Origin: Halotia branconii CENA392
GTDB lineage: Bacteria; Cyanobacteriota; Cyanobacteriia; Cyanobacteriales; Nostocaceae
Assembly: GCF_029953635.1 (NCBI RefSeq)
Contig: NZ_CP124543.1
Coordinates: 535,455 to 599,454, forward strand
Reading direction: 5' to 3'
DNA: 64,000 nucleotides
Numbering within the stretch: position 1 is the stretch's first letter; every line of letters starts with the position of its first letter. This document shows positions 1 to 17,071 of this stretch, one piece after another. A program made the position numbers and the translations under genes. The notes under the pieces are model-generated. The model saw only the letters and a program-made list of their open reading frames with translations, was not told the DNA's origin and ran no database searches.

Positions 1-2229
1 TGGAGCCATTCTGCCACCAGCAAAAGATAAATCTGATACTAGCGAAATTGTTAAGCGATCATCACCAAAACCGCCAAAAAGGTTTCTAGTTCTAGATGGA
101 ATGCCTTGATACTCAGCTCTTGCAAATAAACCAGGTAGAACCTGCATACTAGCACCTACAATTGGCCCAACATCTCCATCACTATATGCCATTCCTAAAC
201 GCCAACTCAGACCTGATAGACTGCGAGCATTACGATTAAGCGTCATTGTATAACGATTGGCTAAATTACCACCAAATTCGCCGCCCAATGATAGTAAATA
301 ATCTCGGTTTAAGTTATAGCTAAAATCGCTTGTATAAACATCACCAAAAGTATTAAACGACAGTCTACTATTTCGTGTTGGTTGATAAAAAGCATTGAAT
401 AAATAGCGCCCTTCAATATCAGGTCTACCTCTCAAAGATAAGCCTGAAAAAGGCCTCATATAGAAAGTTGGTGCAATGTGAGCAGTAGAGTTACTTTGAT
501 CTTGGTAATTGCGAGTAATAACTCCTAGATTAAAATCGTTATTAAACTTATATTGAAATTCCAGACTATGGTTAAAGCGATCGCGCGATTGATTACTATA
601 CAGATATCCCGATGGAAATAATTCTGAATTACCGATAATTTGTAATTTATCTAACTGAATATCTAAGTCTGCTGTATAACCAATTCCACCGCGAGATGTA
701 CCAACACTAGCAGCTAAAATTGCGGGATTAGCTAAACGCCAAACTAAGCCCGCTTGGGCTTGTGTTGTATCGGGTAAAACTTGTAATGCCCCTTCTAATG
801 TTAAATCATTAGAAATACCTTGGCGCACCTGATAAAATGCCGCAAGTTTACCTGAGTCAACAGAATTAAAATCATCAAACAAAGTATTTTGGATTAAGTT
901 TCCAGTTAAGCCTAACCCTCCTAGTTGAAGAGTTCCACCAGACGGTAGTAGCAAATCAGAAACATTAATCCTCAAAGAACGAATTTCAACTGGTAAATTT
1001 GGATTGTTTCGGTCAAATACTAAAAGTTCAATGTCGTTAGTTTGACTTGGAGGCAAATTGACATCTATAAATTCGTATTCTCCACTCAGTCCTACTTGCT
1101 GTTGAGCAACTATAACTCCGCTAACTCTTAACTGTACAAAACTTGCTGGTGGAACTACACCCCGAAATGTTTGTACAGGTTGAGAGCGTCTAGGTAAAAG
1201 CTCATTAGCGTTGTAAGCTGTAGAAAATCTACTTTTGGGTAGATTAGTATAACCAAATTGCGCTCCGGTTAAGTTAACGCCATTAATTAGAGGATGTAAA
1301 CTGATTTGTTGTCGTCCCACCTGATAAAGAAATTGACCAGAACGCTTAAAGAAAAAGTATTCAGTAATGTCAGGTTGGTTAACAAAATTGTTATCTAAAC
1401 GTACTCGCCATGCTCCGTCTAATAAACGTCCTCCTAAAAGAGTAGAACTACGCCAGCTTGTGTCTCCAGAATTGTTGGTAAACTGTAACTCTTGTCTGAG
1501 ATTTGAAAGCCCACTACTAGCAGGTCTAACTTCTGGTTGCAATTCAGCTGCTTGAGAACTAGATTGTCCATCACCTCTTCGCCAAGGTACATCCACAATC
1601 AAAGCTAAATCTGCTGAATTTAGTTCAATATTTGTAGCTAGTTTTTCGCGTAAAACAATATCACTGATATATGTAACACCGTTAATCTCTTTGAGATCGT
1701 CATCTGCGATCGCAACTACTCCTAAAGGAGTTTTAAGTTGGGTTTTACCGTCTATGTTTTCAACGGTAAATCCAGTAAGTTGGGCAAAATTTAATAATGG
1801 AAGTAATAATATTTTTCCCTCTTGCACAACATCTAAACTGCCAACTTCTCGCTGGTTAATGATTACTCCCAGTAATAAATTTTGTGATGTGGCTAAAATA
1901 TTATCACTGAGAGTATTTGTCGAATCATTATTTTTTTCTACTGGGGTTTCTTTGGTGTCAGTAGTAATCGATTTTGGCGAGGCGACTGGTAATGTGAGAT
2001 TTTGAGCAACTACTTGTTTTCCCATTTGTTCCTGAGAGCAGGACTGTAGTAAGTCATTTGGGGAAAATTCAGCTGTTGATAATATTTCTGGTGCAGCAGG
2101 CGCGGCGATCGCTTTTGCAATTATCTCAGATTTTTTGCTATTGTTATCATCCAGCGGTGGTTTGCAAGAAACATTCTCAGACTGTAAGATTGTAACTGTT
2201 GGGGGTGGTGTTGGGTTTTGGTAGAACAT
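1..2229 (-). CDS. Putative outer-membrane usher-like protein of an archaic chaperone-usher pilus system. The 5' part starts at 2229 (MFYQNPTPPPTV...) and the ORF continues past the window start.
   Basis: The minus strand has one long uninterrupted frame, and its start codon was verified by reverse-complementing 2191-2229. It sits immediately downstream of a PapD-like chaperone gene in the same orientation, which is the usual pilin-chaperone-usher order. No signal peptide is evident at the annotated start, so the true start or the family call may differ. Confidence 0.4.
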   Translation of the reverse strand, partial: MFYQNPTPPPTVTILQSENVSCKPPLDDNNSKKSEIIAKAIAAPAAPEILSTAEFSPNDLLQSCSQEQMGKQVVAQNLTLPVASPKSITTDTKETPVEKNNDSTNTLSDNILATSQNLLLGVIINQREVGSLDVVQEGKILLLPLLNFAQLTGFTVENIDGKTQLKTPLGVVAIADDDLKEINGVTYISDIVLREKLATNIELNSADLALIVDVPWRRGDGQSSSQAAELQPEVRPASSGLSNLRQELQFTNNSGDTSWRSSTLLGGRLLDGAWRVRLDNNFVNQPDITEYFFFKRSGQFLYQVGRQQISLHPLINGVNLTGAQFGYTNLPKSRFSTAYNANELLPRRSQPVQTFRGVVPPASFVQLRVSGVIVAQQQVGLSGEYEFIDVNLPPSQTNDIELLVFDRNNPNLPVEIRSLRINVSDLLLPSGGTLQLGGLGLTGNLIQNTLFDDFNSVDSGKLAAFYQVRQGISNDLTLEGALQVLPDTTQAQAGLVWRLANPAILAASVGTSRGGIGYTADLDIQLDKLQIIGNSELFPSGYLYSNQSRDRFNHSLEFQYKFNNDFNLGVITRNYQDQSNSTAHIAPTFYMRPFSGLSLRGRPDIEGRYLFNAFYQPTRNSRLSFNTFGDVYTSDFSYNLNRDYLLSLGGEFGGNLANRYTMTLNRNARSLSGLSWRLGMAYSDGDVGPIVGASMQVLPGLFARAEYQGIPSRTRNLFGGFGDDRLTISLVSDLSFAGGRMAP

Positions 2230-2348
2230 ATTTAAACACAAAAATTCCTACAAGCAGCCTAGAAAGCTTCTTGGCTGCAACATGATTTTTAAGAAAAACA
2301 AAAAATAACCCAGTTGCCGGGAAACTCAAAGCTTTGAAACTGCAAAAA

Positions 2349-3296
2349 CTATTTACTACGAAGAGAGTTTCGGAGGTTTCGCACAGCCGGTTTAACTTGA
2401 GCCTCGATAGTATTAGCTACTGGAACTGTAAATGGAATACCTTTGTTGATGGCTACACCACTCAAATCTCCATTAATGTCTAATACGTAATTTCCAGGCG
2501 GTAAATTTTTGGTAATTGGTAGCTGAAGTTGACGGCGGTTATTAGGTAGTACTGGTGAAAAGGGTAAATATCCTGCGTCTACTACATTTTCTGGGAGCTT
2601 GGCATTGGGCTTGTCTACATTAGCTATAGGTTTTGTAGCCTCAGAACCGGGATATTTAGCAGCAGGCCAAATGGCATATTGACCATTCAATCGCACATAA
2701 GCATTACCTTGATTAGAAACGTCAAATACCGCGTTTTGAGTTTTCTTTTTGGTGTCTACAGCTACAGAATTAAGTACACCAGTTCTTTTTACGTCTCCGA
2801 CATAACCATAGATGACAACACCTATTTGAGAGATGACCCTCATTTTGGTTTTAGGGTCAACTTGATTTTTAGGAGAAACTTCTTGGAGATAAAGTACAGC
2901 CCGGTGTTCTCCTGGTTTGGGTTGGGTTTTAGGACGAATTGCAAAGCGGATAGTTTGGGCGCCACGTGCAGGAATTATAAATCGGGAAGGGGTAAAAACA
3001 ATCCACTGGTCTAAAGATTCCGCAGTGGGTGCAACATCTTGTAGTTTGTTGTCTTGACTCATCACCCAAGACCGAACAAAAGCCTTAATTTCTACTGGTT
3101 TGGAAGAAAGGTTTAGAAGGCGAATAGACTGAGAACGAGTATTTTTGCTATTGATTTCTAATTCAAATCGGGAGGGAGTTACACCAACATTTAGTGCTGT
3201 AGCAGGTGGCATTCCCAGAGCTAACAACCCGATTGCACTTAAGGCTATATTTCTAAATTTTGGAAACATCTGCAATGAAATGATTGATTTTTGCAC
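2349..3296 (-). CDS. Periplasmic pilus chaperone, PapD/CsuC-like.
   Basis: It has an N-terminal signal peptide (LLALGMPPATA). The motif WIVFTPSRFIIPARGAQTIRF matches the PapD-family signature F-x-P-P-L-F-R-L-x-P-x-x-x-Q-x-L-R-I. It is a two-domain protein of 315 aa and is located between pilin-like genes and the usher-like gene. Confidence 0.7.
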   Translation of the reverse strand: MQKSIISLQMFPKFRNIALSAIGLLALGMPPATALNVGVTPSRFELEINSKNTRSQSIRLLNLSSKPVEIKAFVRSWVMSQDNKLQDVAPTAESLDQWIVFTPSRFIIPARGAQTIRFAIRPKTQPKPGEHRAVLYLQEVSPKNQVDPKTKMRVISQIGVVIYGYVGDVKRTGVLNSVAVDTKKKTQNAVFDVSNQGNAYVRLNGQYAIWPAAKYPGSEATKPIANVDKPNAKLPENVVDAGYLPFSPVLPNNRRQLQLPITKNLPPGNYVLDINGDLSGVAINKGIPFTVPVANTIEAQVKPAVRNLRNSLRSK

Positions 3297-3335
3297 ACAC
3301 TATAAAGACGCTATTTCTTGATGGAAATCAGAAAC

Positions 3336-3878
3336 TTAGTGTTGATTTATTGTCACCGTCAAATCGCCACCATAAGCACCAGCTGACTGAGCTGTTGAGA
3401 GATCCATTTTTAAGCGAACGCCTCCCTGTATCAGCGCTGTATTGCTATTTTGATCGCGAGAAACTTCAATGATAGGCAGTGGTTCTAAAGCAACTGAAAC
3501 AGCAGATTCAGAACGCCTATCATTACTAACTGCATTGCTTCGACCATTTTCAGCTCTAATTTCATAAGTGGCATTCAGAAAACCCACTTGCTCTAGGGGA
3601 ACTCGCATTTGCCAAAGTGCTGGCAATTCGCGGGTGATAATAGTATCGAAGCGGGGAGGAGCTAGCAAATTCTCCTGGGCAACTGACTCAGTGACAGCAG
3701 CAGGTGAAATTTCTGATGGTGCAAGAGGAGGAATTACTAGTTTTTGAGGAGTCGATAACTGATAAATTTCCGTAGGCTCGGCACTACTGAATAAATATTG
3801 TGCTAGAGTTTGGGGCTGGTGCAGTAAAAGAAGCGCTGCGATTGTGCCCAAGCAGCTAATGACTTGATTCCGTGACAT
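3336..3878 (-). CDS. Secreted pilus subunit-like protein with a spore coat protein U (SCPU)-like C-terminus.
   Basis: It has a signal peptide and a C-terminal ...GAYGGDLTVTINQH, resembling the conserved G-x-Y-x-D-x-LTVTV tail of SCPU/Csu pilins. It lies in the operon position of a minor subunit. Confidence 0.45.
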   Translation of the reverse strand: MSRNQVISCLGTIAALLLLHQPQTLAQYLFSSAEPTEIYQLSTPQKLVIPPLAPSEISPAAVTESVAQENLLAPPRFDTIITRELPALWQMRVPLEQVGFLNATYEIRAENGRSNAVSNDRRSESAVSVALEPLPIIEVSRDQNSNTALIQGGVRLKMDLSTAQSAGAYGGDLTVTINQH

Positions 3879-4151
3879 ATTGCTGACATCACAGTTATGT
3901 GTATTTGGTGAATTTTGGAAGGTTAGGGATTACAAAAGACTTCCAAAAGGGAGGTTGTAGGGAGTACTTTCAGTACTAAAAATCTAATAAATGGAGGCTA
4001 TGAAGAACAGGATTTAGTTGCACATCAGTAGCCTCGATTTAATTTAGTTAGCGCTTTGCTGAATCCTAGAATGAGGTATAATTAGAGAGTCTAATCTTCT
4101 AATAATTTTCCTTCGCTAAAATCAGCAATATCAGCCATAGAGAAGTAGCTG

Positions 4152-4757
4152 TTACTCAGCAGTAGCTGTAACTGTAATTTCGCCTCCAGTATAAGCACCT
4201 GCGTCAGAGATACCACCGGAGCCATTTAAGTTCAGGCTCAAAGTAACACCACTAACAAAGGGGTTGATTAAGCCAGGTACATTAGCGAAATTCATCATAG
4301 GAGTAACGCCGGCAATTTGGATTGTTGCACCATTAGTTGCGGTGAGAGTAGGAGTTTTTACAGTGGTAGCAACTGTAACACCATTGCCGCGAGGGCTGTT
4401 AGACCATATAGCGAACACCTCTGGGATGTCCTTGTTAACTTGGAGGTTTCCTCCTGTTAAATAAAAGGGTGATGTCTGATCCAGTCCACTGGTGGTTCCA
4501 TCTGCTATACCAGATTTATCTGTACCAAAAAATCCGGTTCCACTTGTATTTAGTGTTGCAGCGGTTAAATCTGTAGGTAGAATAGATACATCAATGGTGT
4601 CAACAGTTCTCAAATATAGTACTTCAGGTACAGTTACTTGAACATTGACATCACTAGAACCTGAAATTTGTGCGTGGGCTGGTGCAGCGAAAATGGTGCT
4701 ACCCAAAGCGGCGGCACTGGCGGCAATAATGGCTACAATTTTGCTCTTCATGATCAA
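4152..4757 (-). CDS. Secreted major pilus subunit candidate with an SCPU-like domain (CsuA/B-like).
   Basis: It has a signal peptide ending AHA-Q and a Thr/Gly-rich beta-strand-rich sequence. The C-terminal AGAYTGGEITVTATAE matches the SCPU-type tail. It is the first small gene of the putative operon. Confidence 0.5.
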   Translation of the reverse strand: MIMKSKIVAIIAASAAALGSTIFAAPAHAQISGSSDVNVQVTVPEVLYLRTVDTIDVSILPTDLTAATLNTSGTGFFGTDKSGIADGTTSGLDQTSPFYLTGGNLQVNKDIPEVFAIWSNSPRGNGVTVATTVKTPTLTATNGATIQIAGVTPMMNFANVPGLINPFVSGVTLSLNLNGSGGISDAGAYTGGEITVTATAE

Positions 4758-4904
4758 AAATTTCTCCCTATTTCTGTGTTTGTGTTAGTTCTGATACTTT
4801 GCTGGGCAAATAAATTGCCTAAACCTTAAAAATCTTGTGAACGCTAAACTACAATCAATCAATTTGGTTTATCACTGAATTTTTTTGTTTTACACATCAC
4901 CTCC

Positions 4905-7595
4905 TTAAATAACCCACAATTCTGTACCATTAGTCCCGTTGTTGGCAGTGAAGAACAGTCGCGTACCAACGACAGTCAGCTTCGCAGGATTAGCATTATT
5001 TGTAGAGTTGATATTGCTCATCTTGCGCGTACCTAAAGCTGTGCCGTCACTGCTCCACACCTCCCTATTGTTGCTAGCATCAGATGCTGCAAAGTATAAA
5101 GTGCCATTAAAATCAACGAGACTAGTAGGAATACTGTTATTTGGTTCGCCACCCACCCAAATATCTTTTACCAGTTCGGCATTGGTGCTGTTGCTTTTCC
5201 ATAGTTCCAAGCCACTGTCAGAGTTATAACCAGTAAAGTAAAGAGTAGTGCCAACACCTGCAAGATTGAATGCACCGATACCAGAAATATCACTGTTTAT
5301 TTGTGTAGTGCCTGTACTAGTACCGTCACTCTTCCACAGTTCTTGCCGAAAGTCACCATTGCTATCTGTAACAAAATACAGCGTATTCTCAACGGCGGTG
5401 AGAAATGCCGGTGCAAATCCATTTTTCCCAGGTGTAATATCTTTAACTAAACTAGCTGCTCCAGCTTCGTATTTCCAAACCTCAACCCCGCTTGTACCAT
5501 CATTAGCTGTGAAGTACAGCGTACTACCAATAGCAGTAAGATTACCAGGGGATGAGCCAAGTCCTCCCGACCTGATATCAATAACTTGAGTGCCATTGGT
5601 GCTACCATTGCTTACCCAAAGCTCTTGACCAAATTCGGGGTTCTGGGCTGTAAAATACAGCTGACCGTTAACATTGGTGAGATTCGTCGGATCAGAACTG
5701 TTAGCACCAGAGTAAATGTCTTTAACTAAAGCAACTGTTGTACCATTGTATGACCACAATTCAGCACCATTCGTGCCATCTTTAGCAATAAAGTAAAGCC
5801 TATTACCGACAACAGTCAGATGATCTGGGCTAGAACTAGCAGCACCAGGATTAATATTACTGAGCATCTGTGATGTAGTGCCGTCGTACACCCAAAGTTC
5901 TCTACCGTTGCTGCCATCGTTAGCAGTGAAGTAAAGCTTATTATTGAAGACAGTCAAATTACTGGGATTAAAACCACCAGGATTAATAGTAGTGATGCGG
6001 GTGTTAGTACTACCATTACTCTTCCACAGTTGCACATCATTACTACCATCATTGGCAGTAAAGTACAAATCGCTACCCCATGCTGTCAAATTATCAGGGT
6101 CAGAACTAGCTGTCCCTGGATACACTTCGAGCATTTGAGTTCTGGGATTTTGAGAAACATTTAGGGTGTAGAAACTGTTGGCTAAACCAGAGGTGTAAAC
6201 ACGAATGTAGTAAGTGCCTGTATTCAAATTGGTATTGATAGTTTCATCTGAGGTTCCTCCCATAGCAGATGACTGAATCACAGTACCACTGCTGTTAAGT
6301 AGTTGAACATCTGCATTGTCAATTAAATTTTTAAGAGTGAGACGAAACTCACTATTGATATTGAGACTAAAACGGTAGTAATCATTAGTATCAATATTGC
6401 CAACAAAATCGTTGAAACTTTGGGAACCAGATAATGTACCGATATCTCTGGCTGTGGCTCTAGTATTAGGAGCTTGGTCTGTCCCTATTGCCATAGCGGA
6501 GGCAGAGAGAGTGTAATTAGTAGCTACACCCGTCTCAGGAGTTACCAAAATGTAATATGTGCCGGAGTTTAAGCTGCGTCTAATCGAGTCTACAGCCGTT
6601 CCCGACAGATTAGAAGATTGAATACCATTTCCTGAGCTATCAAGTAGTTGTAGATTTGCATTTGCTGTTGCTGGGGTTAAAGTAAAATCAACTAAAGCAG
6701 CAGTAGCTAAATCAAAGCGGTAATAGTCTTTGTCATCACCAGAATTGACAAAGTCTGAGAAGCTTGTAGCAGTGGTATTTAAAGGGTTAATATTGCGAGC
6801 CGCTGTCAACGTATTCCCAGCATAATCGTCTGGGTCTGGGGTCAAAGAAAGCTGCAAGTTATAGTTTGTAAAATTACCTGCACCACCAAGATATACCTGA
6901 ATATAATATGTGCCAGCTGCCAGATCACGAACAATAGACTCTGATGCAGTGCCGACTTGATTTGAAGTTTGAAGAATATTTCCAAAACTGTTGCGTAGCT
7001 GCAAATCAGCATTGGCTCCTAGCCCATTTAAAGTGATGCCAATATTGCCGTTATTTGCTAGGGTAAATTTGTAGTAGTCACTGCTATCTTTAATTGCACC
7101 TGTAGCACCTGCGTTGCCTACAAAATCAGTGGTACTGTAGCTAGTGTTGATACTATTAAAAGTACCAATATCAAATGCAGTTGATATCAAATTATCAGAA
7201 CGTCCGCTTTCTTGAACGACTTCGGCTGATAAGCTAAGATCATAAAAAGTGTTACTGCCACCACTACCCAAATAAACCTGGGCGTAGTAAGTACCAACAG
7301 CTAAGTTAACTCGGAGTGATTCCGCTGTAGTACCAGATTGAGAAGAAGTATAAATAGAGTTGCCAGTACTGTTTAGCAGTTTTAAGTCTGCATTGCTGCT
7401 AAGGTTATCCAAACCTAAATTAACAATGCTAGAACTGCTAAGGGTAAATTTATAAGTATCGGAGAGGTCTGAACCGCCAATAGAATCTCTAAATATGTTA
7501 GTAGTGCTGGTTAGAGAACCGCCAATATAAGCTGCTGTATCTAAAGCTGTGGCTGTACTACTTCCTGGGTCGGTAAATCCTGAATAAGTTGCCAT
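4905..7595 (-). CDS. Large extracellular-type protein with four N-terminal PPC (pre-peptidase C-terminal) domains and about eight C-terminal ELWxxDGT repeats.
   Basis: There are four roughly 120-aa repeats, each with a DYYKFTL / DYYRFDL motif and GTYYIQVY / GTYYILV / GTYYIRVY, which is the PPC signature. The C-terminal half has repeated LYFTANDGSNGRELWVYDGT-type units (ELWxxDGT repeat). No N-terminal signal peptide is present. Confidence 0.6.
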   Translation of the reverse strand: MATYSGFTDPGSSTATALDTAAYIGGSLTSTTNIFRDSIGGSDLSDTYKFTLSSSSIVNLGLDNLSSNADLKLLNSTGNSIYTSSQSGTTAESLRVNLAVGTYYAQVYLGSGGSNTFYDLSLSAEVVQESGRSDNLISTAFDIGTFNSINTSYSTTDFVGNAGATGAIKDSSDYYKFTLANNGNIGITLNGLGANADLQLRNSFGNILQTSNQVGTASESIVRDLAAGTYYIQVYLGGAGNFTNYNLQLSLTPDPDDYAGNTLTAARNINPLNTTATSFSDFVNSGDDKDYYRFDLATAALVDFTLTPATANANLQLLDSSGNGIQSSNLSGTAVDSIRRSLNSGTYYILVTPETGVATNYTLSASAMAIGTDQAPNTRATARDIGTLSGSQSFNDFVGNIDTNDYYRFSLNINSEFRLTLKNLIDNADVQLLNSSGTVIQSSAMGGTSDETINTNLNTGTYYIRVYTSGLANSFYTLNVSQNPRTQMLEVYPGTASSDPDNLTAWGSDLYFTANDGSNDVQLWKSNGSTNTRITTINPGGFNPSNLTVFNNKLYFTANDGSNGRELWVYDGTTSQMLSNINPGAASSSPDHLTVVGNRLYFIAKDGTNGAELWSYNGTTVALVKDIYSGANSSDPTNLTNVNGQLYFTAQNPEFGQELWVSNGSTNGTQVIDIRSGGLGSSPGNLTAIGSTLYFTANDGTSGVEVWKYEAGAASLVKDITPGKNGFAPAFLTAVENTLYFVTDSNGDFRQELWKSDGTSTGTTQINSDISGIGAFNLAGVGTTLYFTGYNSDSGLELWKSNSTNAELVKDIWVGGEPNNSIPTSLVDFNGTLYFAASDASNNREVWSSDGTALGTRKMSNINSTNNANPAKLTVVGTRLFFTANNGTNGTELWVI

Positions 7596-8337: not shown

Positions 8338-9759
8338 ATGTTCCAGGCTACTCGTCGCCGTCTGGCTATTTGGTACACTGCTGTCACCGCTGTATTACTC
8401 CTCCTATTCGCTAGTGGAGTGTATTTATATGTCCGCAGTACATTAGTGGAGCGAGTTGACGATACCCTCAATCATGTAGTGGAAATTGTCGAGCGTTCTT
8501 TGGTAATTGAACCAGTTGACGATGAACCTGAGCAGTTTCGCATTAATGTAGAAGCCAGTTTTCGAGATAATGCTGACACCGTAGAAGATGATCACATTGA
8601 TTTAGAATGGTTCAGTCCTACTGGTAAGTTGATTTGGTCAACTTTATCGGAACCTCTAAATATTCCTATTCATGGCGATCGCACTGGTGAAACAGTTCGT
8701 GTAGTAAAGTCAGATAGGGAGATAGCAAAATGGGGAGATTCAGCACTTTTATTGCGACAAGTAACCCAGCGTGTACAAGTCGGACGGCAGGTTTTGGGAT
8801 ATCTGCGTGTAAGTCATCCTTGGTTTGAAGTTACTAAACCTAGTCGCCAGTTAATGATTGATTTGGCATTAGGTACTTGGTTAATGGTAATTTCTGTAGC
8901 TGCAAGTGGCTGGTTTCTTTCGGGTAAAGCGATGGAACCTGTAGGCGAATCTTACCAACGCCTGAAACAATTTACCGCTGACGCTTCTCACGAACTTAGA
9001 AGTCCTATTGCTTTGATTCAAACTAATGTACAAGTTGCTTTGGCTGATTTGGAGTCAGCACAAGCAGAAGCGACTACTTCCATAAACTATCGCCAACAGT
9101 TAAAGTTAGTAGAACGACTAACTCAGCGTTTGGGTAAGTTAGTCAATGATTTACTATTTTTAGCACGACAAGATAGTGGTATTAGCAAAGATAGTTTTTC
9201 ACCTTGTCCTCTAGATGCCTTGTTGATGGAGGTGGTGGAGGAACAACAATTGTTAGCTAGTGAAAAAAAAATCATTCTCACTTTAGACTTAGTTGATCCT
9301 TCCACTTCTACAACTGATCCTAAATTGTTAGAAAATTGGTTCACACTTATAGGCAAATGGGATCAATTAGTGCGGTTATTCACAAATTTAATTGGTAACG
9401 CCTTGCAATATACGCCAGCAGGTGGAAGAGTGAATGTAGAATTGATGCGTATAGAGGCCAGCAATCGCGTTTCTAGAATCCGTTACACCACCGACCAGTT
9501 GCAAATTAAAGTTACTGATACAGGAATTGGGATTCCAGTAGAAGCAATTCCACGCTTATTTGACCGCTTTTATCGAGTAGACCCAGCACGTACCCATAAA
9601 ACGAGAAATACAGCTACAGACAGTACTACAGGCTCAGGTTTAGGATTAGCGATCGCTCAAGCTATTGTCGAACATCACCAAGGTCAAATTCAAGTAGAAA
9701 GCAATATCGGCAAAGGCACTACTTTTATTGTCAATTTACCAATAACCCTAGAGTATTAA
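8338..9759 (+). CDS. Two-component sensor histidine kinase with two TM segments and a periplasmic sensor domain.
   Basis: The H-box is ADASHELRSPIALI. The N box is FTNLIGNALQYTP. The G2 box is GSGLGLAIAQAIVEHHQGQIQVES. Two hydrophobic segments flank a roughly 130-aa extracytoplasmic region. No adjacent response regulator is present. Confidence 0.85.
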   Translation: MFQATRRRLAIWYTAVTAVLLLLFASGVYLYVRSTLVERVDDTLNHVVEIVERSLVIEPVDDEPEQFRINVEASFRDNADTVEDDHIDLEWFSPTGKLIWSTLSEPLNIPIHGDRTGETVRVVKSDREIAKWGDSALLLRQVTQRVQVGRQVLGYLRVSHPWFEVTKPSRQLMIDLALGTWLMVISVAASGWFLSGKAMEPVGESYQRLKQFTADASHELRSPIALIQTNVQVALADLESAQAEATTSINYRQQLKLVERLTQRLGKLVNDLLFLARQDSGISKDSFSPCPLDALLMEVVEEQQLLASEKKIILTLDLVDPSTSTTDPKLLENWFTLIGKWDQLVRLFTNLIGNALQYTPAGGRVNVELMRIEASNRVSRIRYTTDQLQIKVTDTGIGIPVEAIPRLFDRFYRVDPARTHKTRNTATDSTTGSGLGLAIAQAIVEHHQGQIQVESNIGKGTTFIVNLPITLEY

Positions 9760-9953: not shown

Positions 9954-10820
9954 ATGCCAATAAGTATAAGAAAAGATGTAGCTTACATTTTACTCAAAAA
10001 AATTAATGAAACTGGGCAGGGAATGCACGAAGTTGAGTTTAATGAAGCTGATTTATTAGGTAAAAAAATAACACCAGCCGAATTTTTGGGGCATTTAGAT
10101 TACTTAAATCAACAGCACTACATTAATGCTGAATTTACAGGTAATGCCTACGGTAAACAAGAAGATGTTCCTGATTTTATTAATCCGCAAGAGTTTGAGA
10201 TGAGAATCGCCAATACCTATGCGTCACAGGATGGTCCTCTGCCTCACTTGATTACCTTTAAAAAAGCTGAACTCACAGAAAAAGGACGCAAAATCCTAGA
10301 GGAAATGGAAGCTAATCCACCCGAAAGTTTAAAGAAAGGTTCATCGACTCCCATTGCGACGAAAGATATGCCTTTTTTAGAAAAGGTGATGGCCAAGAGT
10401 GGACTACCCGACGTTTATGATGCTAGAGATATCACAGAAGTAACATATCGGGTAATGCGCGATTTAATGACTACAGAAGCCGCCGACCGAGTTGAAAGTG
10501 AACTGCACAAACCAGCCGAGATTACCGATGATAAATCGGTGCAAATGGAAATCGCTGATTTGTGGCATGATACAAATCCAATTGTGGGATTTTTAAGTCG
10601 GGTGCGTCCACCTTGGCAAGGCCCTGGTATTTTTAAAATTGATAGCGATCGCTTTTTATTCAGAGTAGCAAATGAAGGTGGTATGCCACAAAATGTAGAC
10701 CGTGAACAAGTAATCAAAGCGGTATTTTCTGCTACTAAGGATGAATTATCCTCAGAAAGGATTCAAGAAATAGCAAGTTGGTTGCCTGATAAAGTTCGTC
10801 AACTTTGGGAAGAAGCTTAA
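9954..10820 (+). CDS. Hypothetical protein whose C-terminal half is weakly DUF2267-like.
   Basis: It is a clean 288-aa ORF with no recognisable catalytic motif. The C-terminal region is reminiscent of the helical DUF2267 pattern. Confidence 0.4.
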   Translation: MPISIRKDVAYILLKKINETGQGMHEVEFNEADLLGKKITPAEFLGHLDYLNQQHYINAEFTGNAYGKQEDVPDFINPQEFEMRIANTYASQDGPLPHLITFKKAELTEKGRKILEEMEANPPESLKKGSSTPIATKDMPFLEKVMAKSGLPDVYDARDITEVTYRVMRDLMTTEAADRVESELHKPAEITDDKSVQMEIADLWHDTNPIVGFLSRVRPPWQGPGIFKIDSDRFLFRVANEGGMPQNVDREQVIKAVFSATKDELSSERIQEIASWLPDKVRQLWEEA

Positions 10821-11341: not shown

Positions 11342-12175
11342 ATGAATAATATTTTCTCAAATTTTCGCAAGTATGCCGGGTTATTCGGAGCTATTTGTGG
11401 AGGATTATTAATTAGTGTGCCAGTAATTCCAAAAGCAGCATTGGCACAACAGACTACTTCTAAAGTTAATCCTTGTCCAAGCATTTACTACGAAGAACCA
11501 CATAACAATCAAATTTTAACGCCACGCGGATGTCCTCCTAATGCACTAACTCGAAAGCTAGCTGCTCAAGGAACTCTTCCTATGACTCCCGCACCTGCAC
11601 CAACATCTTCATCACCATATCAAGGAGGAATGAGTGTAGGCGGTGAAGCTCCCCAATCAAGCACTCCTGGGATTAACCCTTGTCCTCGTATTTACTATGA
11701 AGAACCATTCAACAGTAGGAATGTAGTACCTCAAGGATGTCCACCTAATGCTCTTACCCAACAGATGCAACAACAAGGATTTACTCCTGGTGTAGTTGTT
11801 CCCGTGCGTCCAGCGGTTTCTGTACCTCAACCACCACTACCAAGTCAACGACAAACCGCCAGTACTCAGGTTGCATTGGCAGATGGAAAGGTGAGTATTA
11901 GATTAGTGAATGATACTGGGGCTGATGTAACTTACCAAGTAATTGGTGATACGCAATCTCGAATCTTAGAGGGTAAGTCAAATGTGATGTTGCAAGGTTT
12001 AAATGCACCAACAACATTGACACTCTACCGTAAAGATAGAGGATTGCTTCAGGTAATTCCCCAAGCTACTTCAACACCGGGAATGTTAGAAGTTAAATTG
12101 GATGAAACAACCGACCAAAATATGAATCAAGGTAGTGTCAGGGTTCAAGAAGACGGTACAGTATTCGTTAATTAG
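11342..12175 (+). CDS. Secreted hypothetical protein with an internally duplicated Cys motif.
   Basis: It has a signal peptide (LLISVPVIPKAALAQQ). There are two copies of NPCP(S/R)IYYEEP..N....P.GCPPNALT separated by a Pro/Ser-rich linker, followed by a roughly 110-aa C-terminal domain. It is preceded by 250 bp of more than 80% AT DNA. Confidence 0.55.
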   Translation: MNNIFSNFRKYAGLFGAICGGLLISVPVIPKAALAQQTTSKVNPCPSIYYEEPHNNQILTPRGCPPNALTRKLAAQGTLPMTPAPAPTSSSPYQGGMSVGGEAPQSSTPGINPCPRIYYEEPFNSRNVVPQGCPPNALTQQMQQQGFTPGVVVPVRPAVSVPQPPLPSQRQTASTQVALADGKVSIRLVNDTGADVTYQVIGDTQSRILEGKSNVMLQGLNAPTTLTLYRKDRGLLQVIPQATSTPGMLEVKLDETTDQNMNQGSVRVQEDGTVFVN

Positions 12176-12558: not shown

Positions 12559-13662
12559 CTACTTGACACGCCGCTTCAGCATTTGAGTTAGTCTATCCAC
12601 CAATAGCACTTCTTTTTTGCTATCTTCTAATGTGCGTGACAATACAATCGCTCTTTCATAAAAATTACGGGCAGTTGGGTAATTACCTAGCTGCTCGTAA
12701 ATTTGAGCGTAGGACTCAAAAGATTTCAACTCCTCACGCAGATTTTGTAATTCTTGAGCAAGGATGAGACGCTGTTCTAATAAATCAAAAGTACGTTCAT
12801 AACGACCTACAGCACTATGAGCTATGACTAAACCATCAATTGCTCGTAATTGGTTAGTGCGATCGCGGTTTATTTTAGCAATCCGCATTGCTGCACCATA
12901 ACTACCAATTGTATCTGAATAGTTCCCTGCTGCGAGATAAGCATCACCTAAATTATTTAAGGTATTCGCTTCACCGATGGTATCACCAGTTTGACGGCGG
13001 AAAGTTAAAGCCGTTTCATAAAGCTTAATCGCTTTGTTGTAATCTCCTAGCCTCACTGTTACTAATCCCAAATTACTCAAAGACAGTCCTTCACCTGTAA
13101 TATTTTTGACATTGTGAGCAATTGTTAGTGCTTCTTGGACTGTTTTACCAGCGGCGACAGGTTCTCCTTGTTGTAGTAGTAAAGTAGCAATGTTGTTGAG
13201 GGCAAAAATCTGAGATTGAAAATCTTTAGTATCACGAGCAATACCTAACTGTCGGCGTAATGCATTTTCTCCTTCTTTAAAACGACTCAGTTGGATATAA
13301 GCTCTTGCCAGTAAATTATAGGTTAGTCCTTGGGCTTTAATATCGCCAATTGAGTGGTAAATATCAAGCGCTTGCAAAGAAGAGTCAATTGTTTTATCGG
13401 CATACCCAGAGGCATACTGTTGTTCACCAATTCGTAACAAGCTATCTGCCTTATCTCTAGATTGTCGCCAACTAGAATTACTTAAAGGTTGGTGGAGTTG
13501 TTGGGTGATATCAGCAGCAGATGCTGCTAGGGGATTGAGCAAAGAAGTAAAAAGTAAAAAATAAAAAGTCAGCCGTGCAGCGAGTCCATCACTACGGCGA
13601 GGATTTACTAAGTATTCTGTACGAAGGATGAGAGCTAATGACAATAAATGCCGTTGTTTCAT
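12559..13662 (-). CDS. Secreted TPR-repeat protein.
   Basis: It has an N-terminal hydrophobic signal and multiple 34-aa TPR-like units (A..Y..LG.AY...G.Y..A). It is encoded directly downstream of a sigma-like gene on the same strand. Confidence 0.7.
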   Translation of the reverse strand: MKQRHLLSLALILRTEYLVNPRRSDGLAARLTFYFLLFTSLLNPLAASAADITQQLHQPLSNSSWRQSRDKADSLLRIGEQQYASGYADKTIDSSLQALDIYHSIGDIKAQGLTYNLLARAYIQLSRFKEGENALRRQLGIARDTKDFQSQIFALNNIATLLLQQGEPVAAGKTVQEALTIAHNVKNITGEGLSLSNLGLVTVRLGDYNKAIKLYETALTFRRQTGDTIGEANTLNNLGDAYLAAGNYSDTIGSYGAAMRIAKINRDRTNQLRAIDGLVIAHSAVGRYERTFDLLEQRLILAQELQNLREELKSFESYAQIYEQLGNYPTARNFYERAIVLSRTLEDSKKEVLLVDRLTQMLKRRVK

Positions 13663-13761
13663 AAAAATTAACCCGTGAAATTTCGGCTTTAATTAGAAGG
13701 TTTAAGAAGAAGTTTTATTTTTTCGTAATTATCGCTACATTTATACGTGTATATACTTGAA

Positions 13762-14391
13762 CTAAGATTGGACTAAATCTTCGTCCAAGTAGATGGTGCG
13801 GATATCTGTAGGTAATTTGTCCTCTAGCATACGATAGCCTTCTTGAAGAAAATTGGCTACTTCGGGAGGCGATATTTTTTCTCCTTCAGCTTGGAGATAG
13901 GCAGCGATTCTAGTCTCGCTCCAATGAAAAGTCTGAGCCATTAAGACCATCAATCGCAAAATTGGTGGTAATTGGTCTAATGCCTTTTCGACGTAGCACC
14001 ATAATGGCGGCGAAGTTGCTTGTAGAGAATAATGAATTGCTTCTGTGGGAGGTACTTGAAGCTCATTGATACAGAAAGCTGTAATGTTAATTAGCCAATT
14101 TTGTAGAGTTAAAGCTTCCTGTCCTGATTGGGGTTCAGTTAAATTGAGTCCACCGAGTTCGTAATAGATATGCCGCCAAGTCAGGGTAAACAGATAATCG
14201 GCTTGCACAGGCGATCGCGCTGAATGCTGAATTAAGGTGTAGACTATAGGGCTGTAGCGGCAAAAAATCACCGTAAAGTACCTCCCAGCATCTGGATTGC
14301 TTTGAAACAAATCCAGCAGTTCTTGGTCACTGTGATGGAACAGCGACTTAACTAGTGGGTGATTAGCTTCCGGAAAATGAGGAATTTGCAT
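13762..14391 (-). CDS. Divergent sigma-70 family (ECF-like) protein.
   Basis: Residues DAGRYFTVIFCRYSPIVYTLIQHSARSPVQADYLFTLTWRHIYYEL align to ECF region 2 (D..AF..L..RY...L.....R......DAEDL.QETFLRAWRAL). However, the acidic DAEDL patch is replaced. The C-terminal LPPILRLMVLMAQTFHWSETRIAAYLQAEGEKISPPEVANFLQEGYRMLEDKL aligns to region 4 (the HTH). Confidence 0.45.
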   Translation of the reverse strand: MQIPHFPEANHPLVKSLFHHSDQELLDLFQSNPDAGRYFTVIFCRYSPIVYTLIQHSARSPVQADYLFTLTWRHIYYELGGLNLTEPQSGQEALTLQNWLINITAFCINELQVPPTEAIHYSLQATSPPLWCYVEKALDQLPPILRLMVLMAQTFHWSETRIAAYLQAEGEKISPPEVANFLQEGYRMLEDKLPTDIRTIYLDEDLVQS

Positions 14392-14584
14392 AAAACCATT
14401 CGGTTGATAGTGGTTAAAATAATATTGGAAATGGTAGTCTTGTAGCTCACCCAGTTTATATTGGGTGTGCTGATGATCATTGCTAAGATTCAGACTACTT
14501 TAGTATTGATAAACTAGAAACAAAGACTTAATTTTTAGTCTTTATCGACAATAATAAAAGCGGCTCCTTTATACAATCTTTAAT

Positions 14585-15187
14585 TTGTTCATGGTTATAG
14601 CAGTCAGTGCAATGAATATTCTGCTCGCTCCCTTGACTTTAGGTTCTTTTTTGCCTTCTCTGCCCTTGGATAGTCTATTTTCTACTCAAGGCATTATGGT
14701 GATGCTGCTAGCAGCTTATGCAGGTGCTATGTGGATGTTTCTCACCAGCGCCCCCAAAGTACACACAGTTATGGTGTCTGATTTAGAGATTGCACGACAG
14801 TTGTATGAAGGGCTGCTAGACTTGCCAGCAGCTGAAGTGCCTCTGCACTACTACTACAACTACGAACAAACTATGGGCGCAACCGGGATCGATCCATTGT
14901 ATATATCCACTAGTCCTAGTTTGTCTGGCAGGATGATGAATAATGCCAATGAAGGATTGTGGTATCAAATGAAAAAAAATACTCAGCTACATGTCATTAC
15001 TGGAGCGAGTTTAGGCAGCAAAAATCAGCAACGTCACGTTTGTTTTGACCGCGACTGCCTAGACATGATTTTAATGCGAGTAGAAATGCGCGGTTTAAAA
15101 TTTAAGATTCGCAACCAGAAGCCCCTAAATTTTCTAGTTAAAGATTACGAAGGGCGCATTATTGAAGTAGCTGAAGTAGCGAATTAG
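14585..15187 (+). CDS. VOC (glyoxalase/bleomycin-resistance/dioxygenase) family protein with an N-terminal membrane anchor.
   Basis: HTVMVSDLEIARQLYEGLL matches the VOC beta-alpha-beta-beta-beta N-terminal motif (H..L.V.DLE.S..FY...LGF). There are two hydrophobic segments at the N-terminus. Confidence 0.5.
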   Translation: MFMVIAVSAMNILLAPLTLGSFLPSLPLDSLFSTQGIMVMLLAAYAGAMWMFLTSAPKVHTVMVSDLEIARQLYEGLLDLPAAEVPLHYYYNYEQTMGATGIDPLYISTSPSLSGRMMNNANEGLWYQMKKNTQLHVITGASLGSKNQQRHVCFDRDCLDMILMRVEMRGLKFKIRNQKPLNFLVKDYEGRIIEVAEVAN

Positions 15188-15322
15188 TTATAACAGGGAA
15201 CAAGGAATAGGCTTGAAAGTCTCTTGGTATCAGGGTTTTATGATCAGCTTATGTCCTAAACTATTTGGCAACAACTATATTGGTCATTTGTATAAATATA
15301 GATCCAAGTCAATGCTCAGTCA

Positions 15323-15354
15323 GATTCCCGACTTTTTCAAAAAAGTCGGGAATC
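15323..15354. terminator. Bidirectional hairpin between the convergent VOC gene and lysS.
   Basis: A perfect 15-bp inverted repeat, GATTCCCGACTTTTT / AAAAAGTCGGGAATC, with a 2-nt loop. It is followed on the plus strand by a T-rich stretch. Confidence 0.5.
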
Positions 15355-15385
15355 TTGTACTTCACGATCTTTTCTACTTATTTCA

Positions 15386-17071
15386 TCAACTCAGTTGTTC
15401 AAATTTAAATTTACCTTTTATAAATTTGTTAAAGTATTGACCTGTAGATGATGCATTGTCTAAGTCTTCTTTGATATTAGGAGGTACTTTGAAATACTCA
15501 TAAACACTGCCACTATCAAATTCAATAGTTAGTATTTGAGTTTTGGCAACATAGCTAAATTGCTTAATAAAGCTACCTTCAGGTTTGAGCAGAGGAAAGG
15601 CGATCGCATCGCGAATACTGGCACAATCAGTTAATAACATTACTAACCTGTCAATCCCAATTCCTAAACCACCTGTGGGTGGCATTCCATATTCAAGAGC
15701 TGTCAAAAAGTCCTCATCTACACCTTGGGCTTCTAAATCACCAGCTGCTTTTCTTTGCGCTTGTGCTTCTAAACGTTCTCTTTGGTCAATGGGGTCTGTT
15801 AATTCTGAGAAGCTATTAGCAGTTTCCCGCCCAACGATAAATAACTCAAATCTTTCTACCAAGCCAGCTTGAGAACGGTGTGGTTTTGCTAAAGGCGAAA
15901 TTTCCACCGGATAATCAATTACAAAGGTAGGCTGAATTAAGTTTGTTTCTACCTTCTCTTCAAAAGCTAAATTTAGTAGTTTACCAATAGATTGGCATTC
16001 CTCTACACCAGGAATAGCAGCATTTTTACTAGCTGTTTTTGCTTCTTCCAAGGTGGGGAACGAATTGAAATCTAAGCCAGTAAATTCTTTAACTACATCG
16101 TGCATTGTTACCCGTCGCCAAGGCAAAGTTAAATCTATAGATTCTCCTTGGTAGGTAATTTGCAAGGTTTCAAGCACCTCTTGGGCGACAGTGGTAATAA
16201 TCCCTTCCGTCAGCGCCATCATGTCGTTATAGTCGGCGTAGGCTTGGTAAACTTCTATGGAAGTAAATTCAGGGTTATGTCGCGTCGAAATTCCCTCATT
16301 GCGGAAAATTCGCCCTAATTCAAACACCTTTTCAAAACCACCCACAATCAACCGCTTGAGATGGAGTTCTGTAGCAATTCGCAGATACAAGTCCATTTCT
16401 AAAGTGTTGTGGTGAGTGACGAAAGGACGTGCATCTGCCCCCCCAGCTTCACTTTGCAGAACAGGCGTTTCAATTTCTAGAAAATCTCGTTGTTCTAAAT
16501 AGCGACGAATACCCGCAGTAATTTGGGCGCGGTGGCGGAAAGTTTGCCGCACTTCTGGGTTAACAATCAAGTCAACATAACGCTGACGATAGCGTTTGGC
16601 AACATCAGTTAACCCATGCCACTTATCGGGTAAAGGTAAGAGGGATTTGGTAAGGATGGTATATTGTTTAACATAAACAGATAACTCGCCCTTTTCAGTC
16701 CGTTTAATAGTGCCTTTGACTCCTAGAATGTCACCTGCATCTGTGAGTTGTTTCAAGTGATTAAAGGCATCAGCATCAATATCTGCCATGCTTTCTTGGA
16801 TGCGATTTTTATCCAGATAAAGCTGAATTGTGCCGGTTTCATCTTGCAATGTGAAGAAAGCCAACTTACCGAAAACGCGACGTGCCATAATGCGTCCAGC
16901 AATGGCAACTTCTAAATCAACTTCTTCACCGTTGGGCAAATCGGCAAATTTTTCTTGCAATTGCGCTGCGTGATGGGTTGATTGCCAACGATAGGCATAG
17001 GGATTAGTTCCTAGCTGCTTTAGTTGATCTACTTTTTCTAATCTGGCGGCACGAATATCTTCTTCCGACAT
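15386..17071 (-). CDS. lysS: Lysyl-tRNA synthetase, class II, with a C-terminal KTSC domain.
   Basis: It has an OB-fold anticodon-binding N-terminus ([27 protein letters not shown]) and class II motifs. The C-terminal roughly 70-aa KTSC-type extension ([33 protein letters not shown]) is typical of cyanobacterial LysS. Confidence 0.95.

Follow-up and report, generated by a model that had tools for sequence, protein, structure and literature searches.

The DNA analyzed here (the window) is a stretch of 64,000 nucleotides from the cyanobacterium Halotia branconii CENA392 (contig NZ_CP124543.1, positions 535,455 to 599,454), and its first 7595 positions hold five co-oriented open reading frames (ORFs) on the minus strand. 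An earlier interpretation made from the DNA letters alone (hereafter, the sequence-only reading) took them for an archaic, Csu-type chaperone-usher (CU) pilus operon headed by a giant repeat protein. The five genes are indeed present at their coordinates and in the order it gave, with the C-terminal tails of the two small proteins correctly quoted. We consider it likely that the four genes at positions 1-4757 form a module of the chaperone-usher type. In the direction of transcription, the genes are the following (protein lengths in amino acids, aa):

4905..7595, minus strand: repeat protein of 896 aa with four PPC domains and nine ELWxxDGT repeats (Pfam, NCBIfam)
4152..4757, minus strand: first putative secreted subunit, 201 aa, ending in GAYTGGEITVTATAE (structural model, conserved terminal strands)
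3336..3878, minus strand: second putative secreted subunit, 180 aa, ending in GAYGGDLTVTINQH (paralogy with the 201-aa protein, synteny)
2349..3296, minus strand: PapD-like chaperone of 315 aa carrying a signal peptide (PapD_N, profile alignment by hhalign to sigma chaperones)
1..2229, minus strand: usher, N-terminal 743 of 950 aa, with its ATG at 2229 and the ORF continuing off the window

In the NCBI annotation, the 201-aa gene begins two codons further in, at the ATG at 4751, which gives a protein of 199 aa (P0123).

At the window edge, the sequence-only reading saw an usher-like ORF of more than 740 aa and allowed that it might prove to be an unrelated outer-membrane protein once complete. 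The complete protein, P0001 of Halotia branconii, is 950 aa long and 100% identical to the window ORF, and both structure and profile comparison place it among ushers. It is annotated as a “carboxypeptidase regulatory-like domain-containing protein”; in one JGI record, the orthologue P0031 is named “outer membrane usher protein FimD/PapC”. We modelled P0001 with AlphaFold2, using 48 orthologues (predicted local distance difference test, pLDDT, of 74.5). After a disordered region (residues 1-115), it comprises a mixed beta/alpha N-terminal domain (117-213), a barrel in which six beta-strands are followed by a beta-sandwich insert (352-420) and about 20 more strands and, beyond the window edge, two C-terminal beta-sandwich domains of the transthyretin-like (CarboxypepD_reg) kind. 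The strand count given by DSSP for the barrel is about 26, versus about 24 expected of ushers, and the position of a plug domain (~352-420) right after strand 6 makes this an usher layout. When the model was compared with the PDB using Foldseek, the top 18 matches were all FimD or PapC (E 1e-25 to 4.5e-12): full-length FimD/PapC complexes were matched over ~900 columns with E 1e-25 to 1e-22, and isolated translocation domains with E ~1e-13 and template modelling (TM) scores of 0.54-0.57.

Homology of the usher and of the chaperone to known proteins reached significance only with an usher profile enriched by remote family members in addition to the Nostocales orthologues, and with alignments rather than single sequences as templates; indeed, the Nostocales-only usher profile gave nothing significant by hhalign against single FimD or CsuD sequences. 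The enriched usher profile matched an alignment of eight sigma (archaic) ushers with a probability of 98.9% (E 3e-17), three-sequence sigma subsets with E 5e-14 to 3e-12, and three classical ushers with a probability of 93.9% (E 1.6e-7). As a control, sigma ushers matched classical ushers with E 1.2e-39. By predicted fold and profile comparison, the 950-aa protein is, thus, a genuine usher homologue, nearest to the archaic class and, judging from these profile scores, far more distant from the sigma ushers than these are from the classical ones. The distance also shows in translated searches (tblastn) of 72,556 plasmids, where the window usher found zero matches and CsuD found 308 ushers, Caf1A among them.

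The 315-aa protein reaches 24 bits against the Pfam PapD_N model (cutoff 23), and 74 of 78 chaperone orthologues match the model as well (best E 1.4e-9); remote family chaperones score 16-21 bits, under the cutoff, which is why they are unannotated. The PapD-type assignment of the sequence-only reading therefore stands, with one correction to the motif that it quoted: four residues, not three, separate the second proline from the glutamine (F-x-P-x-x-F-x-x-P-x-x-x-x-Q-x-x-R, FTPSRFIIPARGAQTIR). Our chaperone profile aligned over both domains with eight sigma chaperones (hhalign probability 97.3%, E 1.7e-11) and reached a probability of about 20-23% with classical chaperones; the sigma-classical control gave E 3.7e-7, and Nostocales-only profiles against single CsuC or FimC sequences were not significant.

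One has to keep in mind that the trait that most characterizes non-classical chaperones lies in the anchoring of the subunit carboxylate by Arg89 of CsuC, assisted by the residues Arg174 and Tyr196 of its second domain (PMC4654587). We, thus, mapped the CsuC residues onto the family through the hhalign alignment, having checked the CsuC numbering against the same publication. Three of the four anchor or hallmark residues are retained: Pro59, the superfamily-invariant D1 proline, corresponds to P103 (kept in 78 of 78 orthologues), Arg89, the F1-strand anchor, to R132 (77 of 78) and Arg174 to R202 (70 of 78). The protein also carries a signal peptide, as do the subunits, with a median maximum hydrophobicity of 2.2-2.4 over the first 60 residues for these proteins. 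These sequence features identify it as a putative periplasmic PapD-like chaperone with a predicted arginine anchor of the non-classical (archaic/alternative) type.

The two small proteins, which the sequence-only reading had called secreted, both have a signal-peptide-like N-terminus, are rich in Ser, Thr and Gly, and contain no cysteine. Their families are remote paralogues of one another (hhalign probability 97%, E 1.2e-10). Structure prediction, which the sequence-only reading had proposed, yielded for the 201-aa protein an immunoglobulin (Ig)-like beta-sandwich ending in a C-terminal strand (pLDDT 84.3), with CU pilins as its best full-domain matches, at modest scores: individually, the Foldseek hits are weak (best E 6.7e-3), and the top ~35 are almost all CU pilins (CfaB, CS17, SafA, CsuA/B, Caf1, FimA, FimI, and PapA). 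The best-conserved segments of the mature 201-aa family are an N-terminal stretch of alternating hydrophobic residues, VNVQVTVPEVLYLRT (TVPEVLYLRT), and the C-terminal strand AGAYTGGEITVTA; this is the pattern that donor and acceptor strands would be expected to show. The spore coat protein U (SCPU) likeness that had been ascribed to both tails is limited to that last strand. Indeed, subunit profiles compared with CsuA/B (sequence checked against PDB 7zl4) or with 14 SCPU pilins align over the last ~28 columns only, with hhalign probabilities of 0.3-29%, the C-terminal G-x-Y-x-G-x-[LI]-T-V falling on the SCPU-pilin C-terminal strand in three independent profile builds. The control, SCPU against classical pilins, gave E 2.9e-9; Nostocales-only subunit profiles against single FimA or CsuA/B sequences were not significant. 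For the 180-aa protein, no Pfam family was found beyond weak DUF4402 matches in 4 of 65 orthologues; DUF4402 also came up in one remote subunit and in one UniRef name. The 201-aa protein is probably the major fibre subunit, and the 180-aa protein, probably minor, is a candidate adaptor or tip subunit.

Several results weigh against a chaperone-usher assignment and have to be set against this evidence. The searches with Pfam models that the sequence-only reading had called for gave PapD_N, at threshold, and neither of the other two pathway families nor the second chaperone domain: no PapD_C match was found in the window chaperone; PF00577 was absent at E<=1 from the window usher and from three other orthologues of Nostocales, and at E<=0.01 from 10 remote relatives; and PF05229 (SCPU) was found neither in the two window subunits nor in their 72 and 65 orthologues (E<=1). 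On full-length usher orthologues, Pfam matched only the two C-terminal domains, of CarboxypepD_reg/SdrD_B/SpaA type. NCBIfam has no family for the usher, the chaperone or the subunits, and sequence and profile searches of the PDB returned nothing relevant for any of the four proteins of the module. In the chaperone, a conserved proline (P248) stands in place of CsuC Tyr196. Finally, the CU pathway expects Sec export of all its components, from which the usher departs: in Nostocales and Microcoleus, it has no recognizable Sec signal peptide (median hydrophobicity 1.05). The sequence-only reading would have been given up had none of the PapD, usher and SCPU models matched, and the outcome came close to that; we kept the chaperone-usher reading because of the structural and profile-profile evidence.

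The usher N-terminus raises the possibility that the module is a decayed or repurposed relic in Nostocales, its usher having lost the signal peptide. An ordinary signal peptide lies directly before the N-terminal domain in 92 of 113 remote family ushers; the ushers of Nostocales and Microcoleus have instead a disordered leader of ~115 aa (window 1885-2229), poorly conserved and modelled with low pLDDT, and a stop codon lies just 5' of the usher ATG. Decay is, however, hard to reconcile with four ORFs that are intact in nearly all 80 genomes of our scan, and with usher and chaperone sequences in which dozens of residues are invariant. Moreover, the atypical N-terminus is itself conserved, the proteins beginning with M-x-Y-x-x-P-P-T-P-P-P (orthologues P0001-P0119), which argues for function. 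We regard a relic as very improbable.

Another possibility is an ordinary operon of the archaic sigma/Csu type, with SCPU pilins, a sigma chaperone and an usher that have merely diverged in cyanobacteria. By hhalign, sigma proteins are the closest known relatives of the usher and the chaperone alike, and the retained CsuC residues, the C-terminal strand motif of the subunits and the order subunits-chaperone-usher, as in csu, all agree with such an origin. The distances do not: the sigma and classical ushers are far closer to each other than the window family is to the sigma ones, SCPU and classical pilins match each other with E 2.9e-9 and the window subunits stay below a probability of 30% with SCPU, and no tested member is matched by PF00577 or PF05229. 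The CsuD search that retrieved hundreds of plasmid ushers has no counterpart for the window usher, the C-terminal domains are of the CarboxypepD_reg type, no CsuE-like tip gene was found in the available sequence downstream of the usher in related loci, and Pfam-recognized sigma clusters exist separately in cyanobacteria (PMC4390875, PMC5853447). An ordinary Csu-type operon is, thus, improbable in our view. What survives of the sequence-only reading is a CU operon with sigma systems as its nearest kin, without membership in the Csu/SCPU group.

The conservation of the gene order is a further line of evidence. A genome scan, in which neighbours were called by tblastn, gave 80 loci, nearly all in Nostocales. 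The chaperone adjoins the usher in 79 of them; a 201-aa-type subunit was matched in 67 and a 180-aa-type one in 56 (56-64 loci with a 180-aa-type protein adjoining the chaperone, depending on the search used). ORF maps of the loci lacking a subunit match revealed two ORFs of ~180-220 aa at that position, or else short contigs, so that most of the missing subunits are explained by divergence beyond the reach of tblastn or by a position off the contig. This arrangement is far beyond chance. An exhaustive profile search returned 521 representatives at E<=1e-30; over 110 of these, clustered at 50% identity and 780-1000 aa in length, are covered by the match from the N-terminal domain through the last C-terminal domain; the range matched on the full-length profile told such ushers from proteins sharing only the CarboxypepD_reg domains. 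Little was gained when remote ushers served as queries in a word-indexed protein search (just 10 matches).

Six remote contexts were examined (L082, L083, and L095-L098): a Chlorobium sp. metagenome-assembled genome (L082, GCA_005862285.1), a contig from a cyanobacterium with ChpXY/NDH-1 neighbours, and four contigs from metagenomes, SusC-like neighbours being present in one of the four. Five of the six have the succession small protein, small protein, ~270-315-aa protein, usher; in L083, one small protein precedes the chaperone and two follow the usher. The small proteins of these six contexts have no Pfam matches on record. In Chlorobium, the chaperone matches the family profile with E 6.7e-48 and the first subunit with E 6.4e-9, N- and C-terminal motifs being shared. 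The module, thus, occurs outside cyanobacteria (L082, L095, L096, and L098), with its gene order kept across phyla. In L096, the three small genes do not lie upstream of the usher but converge with it.

The product is most likely a thin fibre at the surface of Halotia branconii filaments, and its assembly could proceed as follows. The two paralogous Ig-fold subunits would be exported by Sec and captured in the periplasm by the PapD-like chaperone, whose G1 strand would complete their fold and whose F1-strand arginine R132 would hold the subunit C-terminal carboxylate, as in archaic chaperones. The complexes would then be delivered to the outer-membrane usher, with its N-terminal domain, plugged barrel and two C-terminal beta-sandwich domains. 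There, the N-terminal strand of an incoming subunit would displace the chaperone strand by donor-strand exchange, and the polymer would be extruded. We infer the donor-strand complementation and exchange, the formation of a fibre and the identity of its major subunit from these resemblances, and such a fibre may serve in adhesion, aggregation or sheath attachment.

The same machinery could also make something other than a pilus: a polymer of the afimbrial or capsule-like kind, a component of the sheath or surface coat (cf. Caf1 and Myxococcus protein U), or the two small proteins secreted as monomers. The module has two single-domain subunits only and no two-domain adhesin, the subunits are Ser/Thr/Gly-rich and cysteine-free, and the CU-like system of Synechocystis has been reported to secrete an adhesin with no obvious separate pilus (bioRxiv 10.1101/130278). 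On the other hand, the conserved N-terminal segment and C-terminal strand suit subunits that polymerize, into a fibre or a coat, two products that sequence does not tell apart. We hold a non-pilus product to be unlikely and retain the fibre as the preferred reading.

The sequence-only reading counted the giant protein at the head of the operon as part of the locus, which the comparison of loci does not bear out. The 896-aa protein, with its four PPC domains (Pfam, 1.5e-31) and nine ELWxxDGT repeats (NCBIfam, 9.9e-114), lacks a signal peptide and is found in 32 of the 80 loci, all of them close relatives. In other loci, its place is taken by RTX proteins of ~525 aa (L011, L028, L052, and L070) or by proteins of 1600-2270 aa (L029, L034, L036, and L039), that of L029 having DUF4347/RTX/Calx-beta domains; such RTX or giant occupants were seen in at least eight loci, and the slot is empty in many others. 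The PPC/ELWxxDGT protein is, thus, a variable, lineage-specific neighbour outside the core, co-regulated at most.

The usher-like barrel might nonetheless serve to export or anchor the large repeat proteins of that slot, the small proteins being accessory. Three unrelated kinds of large repeat protein do recur directly upstream in the same orientation, and this recurrence hints at a functional or regulatory tie to large secreted adhesin-like proteins. Against their being the cargo, the head protein is absent from many loci with enough upstream sequence and from all six remote contigs, RTX repeats point to type I secretion, and head proteins devoid of a Sec signal peptide could not encounter a periplasmic chaperone by the normal route. 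The large slot proteins are unlikely usher substrates, and we give this explanation as a whole very little credence. Some genomes carry two paralogous modules each: Calothrix NIES-4101 (L039 and L044), Rivularia OY762007 (L029 and L065), and Calothrix UHCC 0171 (L036 and L077). In these, the kinase-adjacent copy lacks a head protein, and the other copy is accompanied by a giant one of ~2100-2270 aa, with RTX repeats in L029.

Other features around the module in the window are listed below:

2309..2321, minus strand: terminator-like G+C-rich hairpin followed by a T-run, in the chaperone-usher gap (weak consensus match)
8338..9759, plus strand: sensor histidine kinase with HisKA and HATPase_c domains, divergent from the operon
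9954..10820, plus strand: DUF2267 protein, just beyond the histidine kinase

The hairpin lies in the 119-bp intergenic gap between the chaperone and usher genes and could be an attenuator that sets usher expression below that of the chaperone and subunits; nine terminator-like sites were found and 6.2 were expected from shuffled sequence, which is no enrichment. The divergent sensor kinase lies upstream of the module in 58 of the 80 loci with 66-93% identity, better conserved than the CU genes themselves, and the DUF2267 gene follows it in many loci. This kinase may regulate the operon, or may be a mere marker of a conserved chromosomal site. On the other side, 3' of the usher and in the same orientation, most loci with enough downstream sequence have ppk1 and a single-domain response regulator of ~138 aa, both outside the window (in L001, at 13083-15876). 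The cluster, thus, sits at a fixed site, between the kinase/DUF2267 pair and ppk1, in most loci, which speaks for an old vertical residence. In the downstream sequence available for these loci, no gene for a CsuE-like two-domain tip adhesin was found after the usher.

Further along the plus strand (11342-12175), a secreted-looking protein of 277 aa with no Pfam family has an internally duplicated Cys-containing motif (NPCPSIYYEEPHNNQILTPRGCPPNALT / NPCPRIYYEEPFNSRNVVPQGCPPNALT).

Taken as a family, these proteins are a large, deeply divergent variant of the CU pathway, closest to the archaic (sigma) systems and, by the usual criteria, outside the Csu/SCPU group. A bolder proposal, which we put forward tentatively as a real possibility, is that the locus represents a previously unrecognized deep class of CU systems, of the same rank as the classical, alternative and archaic ones. 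Such a class would be marked by non-SCPU subunits, by transthyretin-like usher C-termini and, in filamentous cyanobacteria, by an usher that gets to the outer membrane although it has no Sec signal peptide. The module is inherited at one fixed position on the chromosome in most Nostocales genomes sampled and occurs also in non-cyanobacterial lineages; it would then encode an undescribed surface fibre of heterocystous cyanobacteria.

Surveys of CU systems, whether of cyanobacteria or at large, rest on the Pfam models for the usher, SCPU and PapD, and the window family passes one of them, at threshold only. It is through this reliance on Pfam that a system conserved in most sampled Nostocales has remained annotated as “carboxypeptidase regulatory-like” and “hypothetical”. 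Its recognition would offer a genetic handle on surface fibres other than type IV in heterocystous and symbiotic cyanobacteria, with adhesion, aggregation, sheath formation and host contact in view, and would widen the range of sequences known for ushers, chaperones and donor-strand subunits. It also raises a question of membrane biology, namely which export route an usher takes when it lacks a signal peptide.

The sequence-only reading overstated the rarity of CU systems in cyanobacteria. Archaic CU systems are stated to occur there (PMC10104325); Synechocystis CccS (Slr1667), CccP (Slr1668), and UshA (Slr0019), together with other cyanobacterial clusters, have been catalogued by the Pfam combination SCPU + PapD_N + Usher (PMC4390875; 10.1101/130278; PMC6755745), and a canonical sigma-type cluster is known in Nodularia, itself one of the Nostocales (BMF81_00267-00270, PMC5853447). 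No paper describing the window family came up in our literature searches, among them ones on Nostoc with DUF4402, “Cna B-type”, and “carboxypeptidase regulatory-like”. The Synechocystis and Nodularia clusters, discussed for adhesion and surface structure (PMC4390875, 10.1101/130278, PMC6755745, and PMC5853447), follow the same general pathway, with a PapD_N chaperone adjoining small secreted subunits. The window family is set apart from them by the very criteria that define them: it fails two of the three, so that such surveys would have missed it. We also considered the cyanobacterial tubular (CT) pilus, MrpC of Microcystis, and rejected it, as both architecture and gene neighbourhood differ: MrpC-type pilins consist of two long beta-hairpins and a helix-turn-helix, and their cluster includes an O-GlcNAc transferase and an FkbM methyltransferase (PMC12397347).

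With Acinetobacter baumannii Csu (CsuA/B-A-B-C-D-E) and Pseudomonas aeruginosa CupE, the module has in common the order subunits, chaperone, usher, a chaperone alignable over both domains with Pro59, Arg89, and Arg174 retained, an usher profile match at E 3e-17, and the C-terminal strand motif G-x-Y-x-G-x-L-T-V. It differs from them in subunits that are not SCPU proteins by Pfam or by profile-profile comparison, in an usher missed by PF00577 and ending in CarboxypepD_reg/transthyretin-like domains, in the proline replacing CsuC Tyr196, in a chaperone ~60-80 aa longer, in the missing gene for a two-domain tip adhesin and, for Nostocales, in ushers without a signal peptide. With the classical systems (E. 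coli Fim/Pap, Yersinia Caf1), it has in common the usher architecture, FimD and PapC being the best structural matches in the PDB, and the chaperone N-domain motif N...W...TPxxF...Q..R. Kinship in sequence is much weaker there (usher E 1.6e-7, chaperone probability ~20%), and the F1-strand arginine mapped in the window chaperone points to the non-classical mode.

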